Part shown: positions 45,300-56,724 of the stretch, one piece after another
Layout: every line of letters begins with the position of its first letter
How positions within the stretch are numbered: position 1 is the first letter of the stretch
Assembly (NCBI GenBank): GCA_039589615.1
Contig: JBDHHA010000002.1
Coordinates: 25,190-89,189 of the forward strand
Origin: Gemmatimonadota bacterium
GTDB lineage: Bacteria; Gemmatimonadota; Gemmatimonadetes; Gemmatimonadales; GWC2-71-9
Direction of reading: 5' to 3'
DNA length: 64,000 bases
Program-made: the position numbers and the translations under genes
Notes under the pieces: model-generated
What the model was told of the DNA's origin: nothing
The model's input: only the letters and a program-made list of their open reading frames with translations
The model's database searches: none

Positions 45300-48009
45300 C
45301 ACCGGCCGGGCCCTGTACCGCCTCCTGCTCCGCTGCTACCCGGAGGCTTTTCGCCGACGCTACGCCGAGGATATGGAAGTGGTGTTTGCCAAGGCCCTCC
45401 GGCGAGAGCGGGACCGCCGTGGGTGGGTGGGGGTGGTCTCGGCATGGCTTGGCGCGGCGGTCGACGCCGTCGCGCGCGGTGCCACCGAGCGCGGAGACGC
45501 CGCCCGGCGATCCTGGCGGACCCGGCGAACGAACACAAATCCAACGCTCACTCTGGGAGATCGCATGACGCTGTTGTGGCAGGATATCCGGTATGCCGTC
45601 CGCGGGTTCATCAGACGTCCGGGCTTTGCGGTCGTTGCTATGCTGACCCTCGCCATCGGCATCGGCGCCAACACGGCCATGTTCAGTGTGGTCAACGGCG
45701 CGTTGTTGCGACCGCTGCCGTATGAGGAGCCGGATCGACTGGCCCTCATCTGGGAAACGTTCGAGCGGGCCGGCATGGACGCGGTGCCTTTCTCGGAGGC
45801 CGATTTCCTCGACTACCGGGACCAAACCGAGACGCTGTCGCACATGGCCATGTTCCGCCGCCTGGAGGATGCCGTCCTCGTAGGTGATGGCGAACCGGAG
45901 GTCCTCAACGCCCAGATGGTAACGCCGTCGTTGTTCCCGATGTTGGGGGCGGGGGCGTTGATCGGACGGGTGTTCGACCCCGAGGAAGAAGAGCCGGGCA
46001 GGGACGCCGTGGCGCTGCTGAGCCACGCGTTCTGGCAGGATCGTTTCGGCGGCGCGGGGGATGTCGTGGGTCGGACGATCAATCTCAGCGAGAGAAGCTA
46101 CACCGTCGTGGGGGTGATGCCCCGAGATTTTCAATTTCCTCCGCCGGTGAGCTTCGGCGATCTGATGATCAGCTCACAGCCGGATCTCTGGGTGCCGTTC
46201 GCCCTCGACGGGGCGAATGCGGACCGCATGCGGCACGCGTTCTTCGTACTGGGCCGCGCCAAAGACGGAGTCGATTTGGCTCGAGTGGACACGGAGATGA
46301 GCGCGATTGCCGCCCGGGTCGCCGAAGCCAATCCCCAGACCAATACGGGAGTCGGGGCGCGTATCGTCCCGGTCCACGAGCAGTCGGTCGCGACCATTCG
46401 CTCCGCCCTGCTGGTCCTCCTCGCCGCCGTTGGATTCGTGCTCCTCATCGCCTGCACGAACGTGGCGAATCTGTTGCTGGCGCGGGCCGGCGGCCGGCAG
46501 CGAGAGATCGCCGTGCGCGTGGCGGTGGGGGCGGGGCGCTCCCGGCTGGTCCGGCAGCTCCTGACGGAGAGCATGTTGATGGCGTTCGCCGGGGGAGCGA
46601 TCGGATTCCTCTTCGCGGTGATCGGCACCAGAGCACTGTTTCGCCTCAATCCCATGGACCTCCCGGTCATGTTCGACACGGGATTGGATCTCCGAGTGCT
46701 GGCGTTCACCTTTGCCGTCACCGGGATCACCGGGATGGCGTTCGGTTTGATCCCGGCCCTGCAAACCACGAAGACCGATCTCCAGGCGGGTCTCAAGGAG
46801 GGAAGCCGCTCGACGACGGACCAGGGCCAGCTCCGGATGAAGAACCTCCTCATCGTGGGGGAGATCGCCGTGGCGCTCATGCTTCTCGTGGGGGCCGGTC
46901 TCATGATCAAGAGCTTCGATCGCCTGCAGAGCGTCGATCCGGGTTTCGATCCCGAGAACGTGCTCACGTTCCTGGTGCCATTGTCAGAGGCGAGGTATCC
47001 GGAAGCAGAGCAGCGGCGGGTGTTCATCGACGCGGTAGTGGAGAATATCGGTGGACTTCCCGGCGTGCATCGAGTCGGAGGTGTGACCAACCTCCCGCTG
47101 ACGGTGAACCGGACCGGTTCCTCCTACACGGTGGAGGGCGAGCCGCCCCCAGAGCCCGGGGAGTTCCGCATCGCCGAGTTCCGGACCGTCACGCCGGGAT
47201 ACTTCGAGGCCATGGGGATGCCGCTGCTGTCCGGCAGGGGGTTTTCGAATCTGGATGGTCCCGACGCCCAATCCGTGGTGGTAATCAACGAGACCCTGGC
47301 CGGTCGGCACTGGGACGGCGAGGATCCTATCGGCAAGCAGATCACCGGAAGCGTCAACGGAGACAACGGGCCCCACACGGTGGTGGGCATCGTGTCCGAC
47401 GTGCGGTTCTTCGGCCTCGACGTGCCGCCCGAGCCCATGATCTACCGGCCCAACGCCCAAGCTTCGAACCGGGGGATGTGGATCTCGGTGCGGGCGACGG
47501 GGAATCCCGAAGCGTTGGGGAACGCCTCTCGGCGGGCGGTCTGGCAGGTGGATCCCAACGTCCCGGTGGAGCAGATGGAGACCATGCGCTCTCGCTTTGC
47601 CGACTCCATCGCCAAGCCCCGCTTTACCGCCCAGCTGTTCACCGGATTCGGTTTGGTTGCCCTGTTTCTGGCGGCTCTGGGGATCTATGGCGTGATGTCG
47701 TTCGCCGTGGCCCAGCAGACAAAGGACATCGGGATCAGAATGGCGTTTGGCGCCGAGCCCGGGAAGCTTCTCGCGATGGTGTTGACCCGGGGACTCACCC
47801 TGGCGGGGGTCGGGGTCGGCCTTGGCCTCTTGGGCGCGTTCGGAGCCACTCGTTTGATGCAGAGCCTGCTGTACGATGTCAGTGCGACAGATCCAGGCAC
47901 GTTTGCCGCGGTCGGATCGGTGTTGCTGGGAGTCGCGGCCTTGGCCACCTATTTGCCGGCGCGGCGTGCCACGAAGGTGAATCCCGTGGACGCCCTGCGT
48001 GGGGAGTAG
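45292..48009 (+). CDS. ADOP-family duplicated permease with LYRLLLRCYPEAFRRRY N-terminal domain
   Basis: WQDIRYAVR, NVANLLLAR, REIAVRVAVGA, IGIRMAFGA, VNPVDALRGE. Confidence 0.93.
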   Translation: MGSTGRALYRLLLRCYPEAFRRRYAEDMEVVFAKALRRERDRRGWVGVVSAWLGAAVDAVARGATERGDAARRSWRTRRTNTNPTLTLGDRMTLLWQDIRYAVRGFIRRPGFAVVAMLTLAIGIGANTAMFSVVNGALLRPLPYEEPDRLALIWETFERAGMDAVPFSEADFLDYRDQTETLSHMAMFRRLEDAVLVGDGEPEVLNAQMVTPSLFPMLGAGALIGRVFDPEEEEPGRDAVALLSHAFWQDRFGGAGDVVGRTINLSERSYTVVGVMPRDFQFPPPVSFGDLMISSQPDLWVPFALDGANADRMRHAFFVLGRAKDGVDLARVDTEMSAIAARVAEANPQTNTGVGARIVPVHEQSVATIRSALLVLLAAVGFVLLIACTNVANLLLARAGGRQREIAVRVAVGAGRSRLVRQLLTESMLMAFAGGAIGFLFAVIGTRALFRLNPMDLPVMFDTGLDLRVLAFTFAVTGITGMAFGLIPALQTTKTDLQAGLKEGSRSTTDQGQLRMKNLLIVGEIAVALMLLVGAGLMIKSFDRLQSVDPGFDPENVLTFLVPLSEARYPEAEQRRVFIDAVVENIGGLPGVHRVGGVTNLPLTVNRTGSSYTVEGEPPPEPGEFRIAEFRTVTPGYFEAMGMPLLSGRGFSNLDGPDAQSVVVINETLAGRHWDGEDPIGKQITGSVNGDNGPHTVVGIVSDVRFFGLDVPPEPMIYRPNAQASNRGMWISVRATGNPEALGNASRRAVWQVDPNVPVEQMETMRSRFADSIAKPRFTAQLFTGFGLVALFLAALGIYGVMSFAVAQQTKDIGIRMAFGAEPGKLLAMVLTRGLTLAGVGVGLGLLGAFGATRLMQSLLYDVSATDPGTFAAVGSVLLGVAALATYLPARRATKVNPVDALRGE

Positions 48010-48265
48010 GGGGTATTCGGGACGGTGGACAGGGCGAAGCCTCCGAAAACAGGGCCTTTTGACGGGACAAGCCCCCGCCGCGAGGCACCAAACTCTCTCA
48101 TCGGAAATTCATGGGAGCTTCACAGATGCCCGAGGATATTGGTTTCGCACCAGGGGAATGTGAGGTTGGTCGTGCGGGCGGCACCGAAGGAGCATGACCG
48201 GCGCTGCAGCCTCGATTTCCTCTCACCCGGATAAATCTTCGGTGAGGTGCTAACCGGGTCACCAT

Positions 48266-48358
48266 AAAAAACTCCGTAGGGAGTTCGCAACCCCGTCCTG
48301 TGTCGCCCCAGGGTCGGGGTTGCTTCCTTGTGGGAGGGTCGGGTCGGACCCTCCCACA
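48266..48358 (-). terminator. Three consecutive hairpins ending in U-tract terminator downstream of small Cys peptide
   Basis: Stems 48329-48358, 48287-48323, and AACTCC-ctac-GGAGTT-TTTT (minus strand) at 48266-48285. Confidence 0.65.
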
Positions 48359-48366
48359 GGGCCTCT

Positions 48367-48459
48367 CTAACAGCACTCACCACCGCCGTCGCAGCCACCC
48401 CCGTCGTCGTCCGTCTCGGGTCCGCAGCAGGTCGTGGGCTGCAGTTTCGGGTTGGACAT
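48367..48459 (-). CDS. 30-aa Cys/Gly/Asp-rich microprotein MSNPKLQPTTCCGPETDDDGGGCDGGGECC
   Basis: ATG preceded by GGAGGTGATC; TAG stop; 5 Cys as CC..C..CC; followed by hairpins; not in ORF track (<60 aa). Confidence 0.75.
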   Translation of the reverse strand: MSNPKLQPTTCCGPETDDDGGGCDGGGECC

Positions 48460-48470
48460 GATCACCTCCG

Positions 48471-48491
48471 TTGGTTGTTAGTAGCAACTAT
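48471..48491. promoter_or_regulatory. Second copy of MarR palindrome upstream of microprotein
   Basis: TTGGTTGTTAGTAGCAACTAT, 15/21 identical to 49023-49043; minus-strand TATAGT overlaps it. Confidence 0.6.
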
Positions 48492-48508
48492 ACCTCCAAA
48501 AAAAACAC

Positions 48509-49012
48509 TCACTCCAGTGCCGGCTTGGTGCAGCACATTCCGCCGGACACCTCCACGCCGGCCGCCGCACCCTGTGCCAGACGCCGGAGCAACGTCGCGA
48601 GAGATGCCCGTGTTTCGGGGTCGAAATCGCGCAACAGACGCTTCTCTTGCTCGATGATGTCCCTCCGGATTCGGTCGTGGAGCTCGCGCCCCGCTGGGGT
48701 GACCACCAGCTGGATCGCCCGACGGTCCTCGGGGTGGGGGCGGCGCTCCACGTATCCCTTGCGATCGAGGGCGCTCACCACCCGGCTGGCCGTGCTCTTG
48801 TCGAGAAAGAGATCCGCGGCCATGTCGTTCAAGGTTGCGCCGGAGCGCTTGGTGAGGGCCTCCAGGGCATAGCACTGTGTGATGGAGAGATCGTGGCAAC
48901 AGATCCGGTCCCGGTCCCTGAACTGGTAGACCCGGATGAGGTCCGACAGGGCGTCGTACAGGGCCGCGGCATCCTGATCGAGCCGGGGATCGGCAGTCTG
49001 GGTATCAGTCAT
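48509..49012 (-). CDS. MarR family regulator with Cys motifs
   Basis: DRICCHDLSITQCYAL, LDKSTASRVV..L.RKGYVER, DRRA, C-terminal GMCC. Confidence 0.92.
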   Translation of the reverse strand: MTDTQTADPRLDQDAAALYDALSDLIRVYQFRDRDRICCHDLSITQCYALEALTKRSGATLNDMAADLFLDKSTASRVVSALDRKGYVERRPHPEDRRAIQLVVTPAGRELHDRIRRDIIEQEKRLLRDFDPETRASLATLLRRLAQGAAAGVEVSGGMCCTKPALE

Positions 49013-49022
49013 CGAACGCCTA

Positions 49023-49067
49023 ATAGTTGGTGCTACCAACTATATTGGTCAGGGCACACGGTGTCAA
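49023..49067 (-). promoter_or_regulatory. marR promoter with overlapping operator
   Basis: Minus strand TTGACA-N17-TATAGT; perfect ATAGTTGGT-gct-ACCAACTAT at 49023-49043. Confidence 0.8.
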
Positions 49068-50029
49068 GCCTTCCGACTCAGCAGCCCGGTGAGCGTCCCC
49101 ACGGCGATGTTGCCACCCGAAACCACCGTCACGACCACGTCTCCCTCGGTCAGGGGGATGCGCCCGGCTAGGAGGGCGGCGGTGGCCGCGGCCCCCGCGG
49201 GCTCGGCCAGGAGCTTCGTATGGGACAGGAGGAGGCCCATGGCCTCCACGATCTCGTCATCGCTGACGAGCACCACGTCCTCCACGCATTCCTTGACGAA
49301 CTCGTAGGTCAGCTCGCCCGCCATGGGTGGGGCCAGGCCGTCTGCGATGGTGTGCACCGAATCGGCGTGGACGGCGTGACCTGCATCGAGGCTCTGCCGC
49401 ATGGTGCTTGCGCCCTCCGGCTCGACACCGAAGATCCGCACGCGGGGGTTGCGGGCCTTTGCGGCGCCGGCGACCCCGGCGATGTGTCCGCCGCCGCCGA
49501 TGGGCGCCACGATGGTGGTGACGTCGGGACATTGCTCCAGGATCTCGAGTCCGGCGCTGCCCGCCCCAGCGATGATTTGGGGGTCGTCGAACGGGTGGAC
49601 GAACGCGAGACCCCGCTCCCGCTCCAAGGTCCGGGCCTTGTCGAAGAGGTCGTGCACGGTTCCGTGCAGGATGACCTCGGCGCCGTAGGCGGCCGTGGCC
49701 TCCGCCTTGATCTTCGAGGCGCTCTCCGGCATGACGACCGTGCTGGGAATCCCAATCTCGGCCGCGGCCCACGCCAGGGCCTGGGCGTGGTTGCCTGCCG
49801 ACACCGTGATCACGCCCCGGGAGCGGGAGGTGGCGTCGAGTTGCATGAGCTTGTTGAGGGCGCCGCGCGCTTTGAACGAGCCGGTCTTCTGCAGGTTCTC
49901 ACATTTGAGATAGAGATCGGCGCCGATCCGCCGGCCCAAGAGGGTGGAGCGCTCGAGAGGGGTGTGGTGAACCCGGTCGGCGATGCGCGCCCGGGCGGCC
50001 GTGAAATCTTCGAGGGTCAATGGCAGCAT
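49064..50029 (-). CDS. PLP-dependent threonine/serine dehydratase (no ACT domain)
   Basis: ENLQKTGSFKARG, SAGNHA, PIGGGG, TIADG, SGGN. Confidence 0.92.
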   Translation of the reverse strand: MLPLTLEDFTAARARIADRVHHTPLERSTLLGRRIGADLYLKCENLQKTGSFKARGALNKLMQLDATSRSRGVITVSAGNHAQALAWAAAEIGIPSTVVMPESASKIKAEATAAYGAEVILHGTVHDLFDKARTLERERGLAFVHPFDDPQIIAGAGSAGLEILEQCPDVTTIVAPIGGGGHIAGVAGAAKARNPRVRIFGVEPEGASTMRQSLDAGHAVHADSVHTIADGLAPPMAGELTYEFVKECVEDVVLVSDDEIVEAMGLLLSHTKLLAEPAGAAATAALLAGRIPLTEGDVVVTVVSGGNIAVGTLTGLLSRKA

Positions 50030-56435: not shown

Positions 56436-56724
56436 CGCGGGTTCCTCCGAGGACCGTCACCGCAAGTTAGCAGGGTAGCCGCGCACCATAGGGAAACAGC
56501 GGCACAGTAAGCCCCCGTTCGCGCAACAAACCGCCCTAACGTCCCACCACATCGCCCACGACAGATAAGGGTGCGGGTTATTCGGGTGAGGTGAAAACCA
56601 AACCGCCCCTTGCGCGACGAACGCTGAAGGGCGGCTAAACCAGAAAGGCGGTTAGTTGGTGGTAACAACAATCTGTAGTGGTGGGTCCGACGCAAGGCCG
56701 GACCCGATACCGAAGAACCTGAAC

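Follow-up and report, generated by a model that had tools for sequence, protein, structure and literature searches.

The window analysed here, a stretch of 64,000 nucleotides from a Gemmatimonadota bacterium (assembly GCA_039589615.1, contig JBDHHA010000002.1, positions 25,190 to 89,189 of the forward strand), carries on its minus strand a compact cassette of two genes, in which a marR-type repressor gene is followed by a gene for a small cysteine-rich peptide (window positions 48367-49067). A first-pass annotation, made from the DNA letters, had listed a promoter, a palindrome, a MarR protein, a second palindrome, a ribosome-binding site and a 30-residue open reading frame (ORF), and all of these are present as it described them (Table 1). 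The promoter is the single promoter-like site in 47900-49300, compared with an expectation of 0.2 from shuffled sequence, and its -35 hexamer shares bases with the stop codon of the gene upstream, which encodes a PALP dehydratase. Operator 1 shows 0 mismatches on one strand and 1 on the other. Operator 2, whose agreement with operator 1 had been counted correctly, is preceded by a run of eight T and stops one base short of the ribosome-binding site of the peptide gene. The peptide itself is rich in Cys, Gly and Asp. Throughout the text, G000 denotes the source genome, G001-G009 are related genomes, L numbers are loci and C numbers are contigs of the source genome.

The RNA fold of the spacer between marR and the peptide gene shows no significant structure (z -0.17), so no internal terminator is claimed for the source genome, despite a hairpin with a T-run in the loci L003-L005. 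The GC-rich hairpin behind the peptide gene likely forms the 3' end of the cassette; such a hairpin also lies 3' of the peptide stop codon in L002, L006, L008, L130 and L077, and it is absent from the two congeners that lack the cassette, G001 and G004. Among the hairpins and terminator that had been assigned to the unit earlier, this one does belong to it, whereas the hairpin at 48287-48323 and the T-run hairpin at 48263-48286 fall inside a neighbouring conserved non-coding element.

Table 1 Features of the marR-peptide cassette and of the adjoining element, in window coordinates.
Feature	Position	Strand	Remarks
Sigma-70-like marR promoter, TTGACA-N17-TATAGT	49039..49067	-	11/12 positions match
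Operator 1, 21-bp palindrome with 9-bp arms	49023..49043	.	overlaps -10 hexamer of marR promoter
marR_ars-type repressor gene, 167 aa	48509..49012	-	ATG at 49012; C38-C39, C47, C160-C161
Operator 2	48471..48491	.	15/21 bases identical to operator 1
Ribosome-binding site of peptide gene, GGAGG	48465..48469	-	five bases 5' of ATG
Peptide gene, 30 codons + TAG	48367..48459	-	five Cys, CC at end; from ORF list and alignment
GC-rich hairpin, 12-bp stem, no U-tract	48329..48358	-	directly 3' of peptide stop codon
Conserved non-coding element, ~240 nt	48094..48333		between peptide gene and convergent gene

The 167-residue protein contains a MarR domain (Pfam MarR_2, E = 5.8e-13, 49.2 bits against a cut-off of 27) and also matches the Pfam family MarR above its cut-off (1.7e-11). 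Its cysteines follow the arrangement that the first-pass annotation had pointed out, CC-x7-C and a C-terminal CC: seven residues separate the first pair from the next Cys, and the last pair is placed six residues before the C-terminal end. All five cysteines are invariant in 8/8 MarR orthologues. This type of regulator is already known. According to a preprint on the MarR_ars subfamily (bioRxiv 10.1101/2021.08.12.456183), its members are repressors that respond to trivalent arsenic and antimony, As(III) and Sb(III). The founding member, AdMarR_ars of Achromobacter sp. As-55, is described there as binding its own promoter and that of the adjacent arsV and repressing both genes, as being released by As(III)/Sb(III) rather than by As(V)/Sb(V), and as requiring Cys36, Cys37 and Cys157 for its As(III) response. 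The same preprint places MarR_ars genes beside arsV, arsN, arsP and similar genes and names orthologues that include those of Tahibacter and Luteitalea, with Tahibacter aquaticus listed with marR-arsN. The C38-C39 and C160-C161 pairs of the window MarR match these three AdMarR_ars cysteines by position number and context rather than by alignment, and we assign the protein to the MarR_ars type with high confidence.

The Cys motif, which includes C38-C39, recurs in homologues from 175 of 202 matched genome-contig stretches and from 357 of 532 matched metagenome-contig stretches, and nearly all family members inspected have Cys in the C-terminal tail. By record title the homologues belong mostly to Gemmatimonadota and Acidobacteriota. 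The cultured Tahibacter caeni, of the same genus as the listed Tahibacter aquaticus and of another species, has a MarR with 56% identity to that of the window and a GNAT gene next to it (L094). A homologue on a Pseudomonas plasmid (57% identity over residues 26-133) is located in an island together with ArsR, ArsC, ACR3 and ArsH. On this plasmid (NZ_CP026333.1) an ArsN-like GNAT ORF (L232:5365-5997) stands directly after the MarR_ars homologue, and this ORF is missing from the PLSDB gene table for the stretch concerned. The window MarR is the sole homologue of its kind in the source genome at E <=1e-10.

Conservation of the peptide gene was followed through the relatives of this regulator. Clear MarR orthologues (E <=2e-54) are present in 7 of 61 related genomes, namely in six of the eight other members of the genus and in one member of a second genus. 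The first-pass annotation had proposed looking for small Cys ORFs behind homologous MarRs, and the outcome was uniform: after each of the 7 orthologous MarRs, the next ORF is a short Cys-rich one, which has its ribosome-binding site in common with the window gene and terminates right behind CC. Scans of genome and metagenome contigs yielded additional peptide loci. An equivalent of operator 1 precedes marR, and operator 2 is kept before the peptide gene, in 7/7 of these loci. A Cys-tail scan found no peptide behind nine weaker MarR matches (L009-L017, E 9e-28 to 5e-11), of which L009 was read. In total, 17 distinct peptide sequences of 27-32 residues were collected, 13 of them in the alignment and 4 more from a profile search of a protein library. 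That search, covering 1.84 billion representative proteins at E <=0.001, returned six matches, comprising one unrelated repeat protein and five stand-alone peptides of 30-32 residues that already stand in the library as predicted proteins.

The start codon, the ribosome-binding site and the stop directly after CC are kept in all versions of the peptide, every peptide locus read has GGAGG or AGGAGG before the ATG, and all differences in length are in frame. In the 13-row alignment the C-terminal CC is invariant and the central Gly-rich stretch is largely kept, while the N-terminal part is variable. Between the window gene and its closest relative (L002) there are 13 synonymous and 4 non-synonymous differences, corresponding to a ratio of non-synonymous to synonymous change (pN/pS) of 0.09 (binomial P 5e-6). 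The ratio is below 1 in 28/28 pairs (0.09-0.70), similar to that of marR (0.17-0.51). Because of this conservation and the pN/pS pattern, the 30-residue ORF is, as far as the DNA sequence can tell, very likely a real translated gene rather than drifting DNA. The peptide has no family match in Pfam or NCBIfam at E <=1, seven further peptides have none in Pfam, and a search of the ESM Atlas gave no usable match. Sequencing runs showed only small word shares (0.08-0.15), and no habitat is assigned from them. Four runs were compared at the level of contigs; those of the two RNA runs cover the neighbouring element and marR relatives (a contig of 529 nt with 90% likeness) and not the peptide ORF, a result that is uninformative either way. 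The same marR-peptide cassette, with 69% MarR identity, is also found on a contig of a metagenome-assembled genome (MAG) titled Planctomycetota (L020), possibly through a binning error or transfer.

The operator provides a link from the cassette to arsenic methylation. Its core, ATAGTTGNNANNNNCAAC, occurs in exactly two copies in the 64-kb window (0 of 100 shuffles), and the 6.2-Mb assembly has only one further exact core. It belongs to a near-perfect palindrome on contig C8 that ends some 15 bases ahead of the start codon of an arsM gene (L098:1504-2360). This gene encodes an arsenite methyltransferase of 267 residues (NCBIfam NF008823, 366 bits against a cut-off of 263). A promoter-like site, TTGCGG-N17-TATAGT, stands directly upstream of it with its -10 hexamer overlapped by the operator, and its neighbours are a porin-like ORF and a helix-turn-helix/Fic-like pair, with no regulator of the window MarR family among them. 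In the related genomes G002, G003, G005, G006 and G008, a single extra operator site lies before the arsM orthologue (70-72% identity), and G009 has such a site with one mismatch; the contig of G007 breaks off before the 5' end of arsM. The MarR-less G001 has an arsM (59% identity) with no operator site upstream, and G004 shows only distant methyltransferase matches. Since the operator precedes arsM in six MarR-bearing genomes of the genus and not in the MarR-less G001, the peptide and ArsM are very probably co-regulated, as judged from the placement of these sites.

Two operator-like sites with 2 mismatches were left out of the predicted regulon (window 56652-56672 and L200:483-503 on contig C439), because by our estimate about 3 such sites are expected by chance. 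The first is located some 220 bases upstream of a 602-residue ORF, and the second just before a gene for a 327-residue MarR-GNAT fusion with its own Cys motif; either may reflect chance or a paralogous regulator.

The marR-peptide pair is a clean two-gene unit. Both G001 (95% complete) and G004 (a single contig) are without the MarR, and in both the PALP dehydratase gene is followed by about 70 bases and then by the conserved non-coding element, with no marR and no peptide gene between them. The difference between cassette-less and cassette-bearing loci is thus exactly marR, the peptide gene and the first hairpin, in agreement with the earlier description of a self-contained unit.

A census of the gene behind MarR_ars regulators was taken from 161 loci, made up of the window and two collections of 80 loci each, with some duplicates between the collections. 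The next gene is arsM in 73 loci, a short Cys peptide in 16, a longer Cys peptide of 55-63 residues in 5 and something else in 59; the contig ended in the remaining 8. When 44 cargo ORFs were scanned individually, 28 matched the arsenite methyltransferase family NF008823 (best E 3e-111). The other cargo includes an ArsP_1 permease, GNAT acetyltransferases, flavin oxidoreductases, a molybdopterin oxidoreductase and proteins with pyrroloquinoline-quinone (PQQ) propellers. Many of the cargo genes carry their own upstream operator copy, readable as L-L-L-T-T at extended ORF starts. Because cargo genes behind marR have such operator copies of their own, the layout of the family is modular, consisting of a promoter with operator, marR, a further operator and the cargo, and the peptide is one kind of cargo. 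Cys-rich tags are also found fused to the N- or C-termini of ArsM proteins and to the N-terminus of a flavin oxidoreductase (L143).

The longer peptides are a second type of Cys-rich ORF, found behind other MarR_ars genes in L133, L140, L163, L165 and L179. Their three CC pairs are separated by 7-8 residues, a CGC lies close to the end, and the 4 of the 5 that were scanned have no Pfam match. An ECF sigma factor follows this ORF in L140, a flavin oxidoreductase lies further downstream in L165, and the intervening ORF in L179 has no Pfam match; the module fused to the flavin oxidoreductase in L143 is of this type.

Genes for the PALP dehydratase and an EVE-domain protein lie upstream of the cassette, and the convergent gene downstream is variable. 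It encodes an ADOP-type permease of 905 residues in the window and in G007; in most relatives (L019, L022, L036, L038, L067) the convergent gene encodes a predicted membrane protein of 320-332 residues without a Pfam family. The non-coding element between the peptide gene and the convergent gene also occurs in L183-L188 and L007. One full copy is present in each genome where it was found, with 82% identity in G001 and a partial copy in G004. ARAGORN found no tRNA or tmRNA match in it, and the Rfam search at E <=1 over 47800-49200 returned only a sub-threshold match to BjrC80 (21.6 bits against a gathering score of 80). The consensus fold reaches -52 kcal/mol on the plus strand compared with -38 on the other, with several G-U pairs and 10 pairs that show compensatory changes, and on the plus strand a terminal hairpin is followed by a U-rich tail. 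In addition, one soil RNA run yielded a 217-nt contig that matches 48159-48376 with 95% identity. These observations suggest that the element is probably a small RNA gene convergent with the peptide gene.

What does the cassette respond to, and what may the peptide do? Because the usual cargo of the family is arsM and the same operator stands before the unlinked arsM, the inducer of the window MarR is most likely As(III)/Sb(III) rather than soft metals generally. The earlier idea of a thiol-sensing MarR is borne out to the extent that the regulator is of the MarR_ars type with a Cys sensor; the broad soft-metal response it had been paired with gives way to the narrower one suggested by the published description of the subfamily. 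We somewhat favour the reading that the peptide is an arsenic-induced thiol peptide, which would buffer the trivalent metalloid or hand As(III) to ArsM. In the proposed mechanism, without metalloid a MarR dimer would sit on operator 1, on operator 2 and on the third copy before the unlinked arsM. Binding of As(III) or Sb(III) to the Cys triad, C38/C39 and a C-terminal Cys, would then release the repressor, and the peptide and ArsM would be made together. The vicinal thiols of the peptide would bind the trivalent metalloid, and the peptide may act as a buffer for As(III) and for MAs(III), the more toxic methylated product of ArsM, or as an As(III) carrier to ArsM, two roles that do not exclude each other. 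It would be the free-standing counterpart of the Cys-rich tails on ArsM and flavin monooxygenase cargo, which may act in cis.

The origin of the peptide bears directly on how this reading should be weighed. In a MarR tree of 160 rows (quick search, with support from the Shimodaira-Hasegawa-like approximate likelihood ratio test, SH-aLRT, only), the 14 rows with window-type peptides fall into one 18-row group (support 87) that also holds ArsP-like, GNAT and GNAT-methyltransferase fusion cargo. The group is placed in a polytomy beside a 17-row group (support 89), whose labelled rows are Gemmatimonadota with arsM cargo. A second, unrelated Cys peptide of 30 residues, the same in L077 and L180 and coming from a Thermoanaerobaculia MAG, is nested among Acidobacteriota arsM loci. 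Its DNA (L077:4440-4800) aligns with that of L078, L082 and L083 over the operator, the leader and about 25 arsM codons including the CC...CC tag, after which the sequences part and a terminator hairpin follows. Since this ORF is the detached 5' end of arsM, truncation of arsM can leave behind a Cys peptide under MarR_ars control, and such an origin is plausible for the window family as well. In the sister clade, comparable CCGP...CC loops are present at the ArsM N-termini. Comparison of the peptide family with ArsM by hhalign gave a probability of 3.3% over 3 aligned columns, a weak test given the short, low-complexity query, and a tblastn search with ArsM had no match immediately behind marR at any of the 16 loci with a short peptide. 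Regardless of where it came from, the peptide family is kept under selection across two genera, to judge from its substitution pattern. A more specific version of the favoured reading would make the peptide a dedicated carrier of trivalent arsenic that originated as the 5' end of a truncated arsM and became fixed afterwards. As the trans version of the ArsM Cys tag, co-induced with the unlinked ArsM, it would take up As(III), or protect the cell against MAs(III), and feed the methyltransferase; this version is tentative, and we consider it rather unlikely in its full form.

The same evidence also supplies a case for a peptide without any function, in which the ORF is a bare 5' remnant of arsM, kept open by chance or by its overlap with the operator and the ribosome-binding site. 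ArsM is the usual occupant of the slot, the L077/L180 ORF corresponds base for base to the operator, the leader and the first ~25 codons of arsM, and the loops of the sister-clade ArsM proteins resemble the peptide. The first-pass annotation had itself named a remnant of a longer gene such as an arsenite methyltransferase as the finding that would undo its proposal, and this describes the analogous L077/L180 peptide; for the window family, no residual ArsM similarity was found, and its conservation speaks against a remnant in decay. Start codon, ribosome-binding site, frame and the stop after CC persist in all 17 versions at MarR identities down to 55%, every length change is in frame, and the pN/pS values speak for constraint on the protein. 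For the window peptide, loss of function after truncation is therefore improbable.

A second alternative concerns the ligand. The peptide could be a general soft-metal or redox buffer without specificity for arsenic or antimony, acting either as a thiol redox peptide or as a mini-metallothionein that takes up Cu(I), Cd, Hg or Zn. Many soft metals are bound by vicinal thiols, and the abundance of Cys, Gly and Asp recalls metallothioneins. The introduction of the preprint (bioRxiv 10.1101/2021.08.12.456183) also cites MarR proteins that are responsive to Cu or Zn. On the other hand, the regulator has the MarR_ars Cys triad, the cargo of its family consists of arsenic genes, and the same operator stands before arsM in six genomes of the genus. 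The resemblance to metallothioneins that the first-pass annotation had seen did not carry over to the family level, since the peptide family matches no metallothionein family in Pfam or NCBIfam. Such a general buffer is an improbable function for the peptide.

The peptide might instead be regulatory. It could compete with MarR_ars for the metalloid or hand the metalloid to it, thereby setting the threshold of induction, or its translation could modulate the operon in cis. The Gly-Gly-x-Cys-Cys ending common to the peptide and the MarR tail would fit such a role, as would the fact that the two genes travel as one unit and that operator 2 abuts the ribosome-binding site. A leader peptide, however, would require a gene to lead into, and no same-strand gene lies downstream of the peptide gene; the unstructured spacer also argues against it, and selection acts on the amino-acid sequence and not just on the act of translation. 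We rate this possibility about as low as that of the soft-metal buffer. Finally, a small ORF whose N-terminal part varies and whose C-terminal part is rich in Cys and Gly could encode the precursor of a thiol-rich natural product of the ribosomally synthesised and post-translationally modified type, which is very improbable given that no modification, processing or export gene, such as a modifying enzyme, protease or exporter, is conserved beside the peptide gene among the neighbours of the cassette and its relatives, that the downstream neighbour varies and that the cassette is a clean two-gene indel.

Several points also weigh against the arsenic-induced thiol peptide itself. The first CC pair of the peptide is usual and not invariant, with one Cys left in L005 and none in L130. 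The family is narrow, with 5 clusters in the protein library and a single MarR clade. The L077/L180 case shows that arsM truncation can yield a similar ORF as nothing more than a by-product. Transcription, translation and metalloid binding of the peptide, like all its other properties, and the occupancy of the operators by MarR are predictions from sequence, and the As/Sb specificity of the window MarR is carried over by analogy from the one characterised relative, the family member described in the preprint.

Arsenic resistance systems are well catalogued. In the open-access literature of PubMed Central (PMC) and bioRxiv, we found neither a regulated ars component in the form of a small Cys-rich peptide nor control of arsM in trans by a MarR_ars regulator. 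Binding of As(III), Sb(III) or MAs(III), if it occurs, would make the peptide a new component of the ars toolkit and would offer an explanation for the Cys-rich tails on many ArsM enzymes. The peptide would then also be a genetically encoded binder of 30 residues with a matched sensor and operator, suited to biosensors and metalloid capture. The locus illustrates the modularity of MarR_ars systems, in which one slot holds arsM, arsP-like, arsN-like or flavoenzyme genes or a microprotein, and its operator copies suggest that a MarR_ars regulator may control an unlinked arsM in trans. Should the peptide indeed be a carrier that arose from arsM, no smaller gene-encoded metalloid chaperone would be known, and it would document the formation of a microprotein from a gene remnant.

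Among known systems, a possible model for how the peptide and ArsM might work together is ArsD, the As(III) metallochaperone of arsRDABC operons, whose vicinal Cys pairs pass As(III) to a partner in the same regulon, the ArsA ATPase. ArsD is a folded protein of about 120 residues, whereas the window peptide is too short for such a fold and has no sequence relation to it (no Pfam or NCBIfam match). The bacterial metallothioneins SmtA/BmtA and MymT are likewise small, Cys-rich and metal-induced under a metal-sensing repressor, and they serve Zn/Cd or Cu(I). Compared with the window peptide they are longer and have other Cys patterns, and the regulator in the window belongs to an arsenic-linked family. 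The peptide also resembles in pattern the Cys tails of ArsM and the N-terminal tag of a flavin oxidoreductase, in which a CC (often CCGP) is followed after a few residues by another CC, and which occur behind the same MarR family in the same slot after the second operator; unlike the ArsM tails, the window peptide stands alone across a whole MarR clade and has no detectable ArsM homology. In its regulation the cassette resembles MarR_ars-arsV of Achromobacter sp. As-55, with a vicinal Cys pair near residue 37, a C-terminal Cys and one operator at each of two promoters, features that here are read from sequence. It differs from MarR_ars-arsV in that its cargo is a 30-residue peptide rather than an enzyme or permease, in the further operator copy at an unlinked arsM, and in its host, an apparently uncultured member of the Gemmatimonadota.

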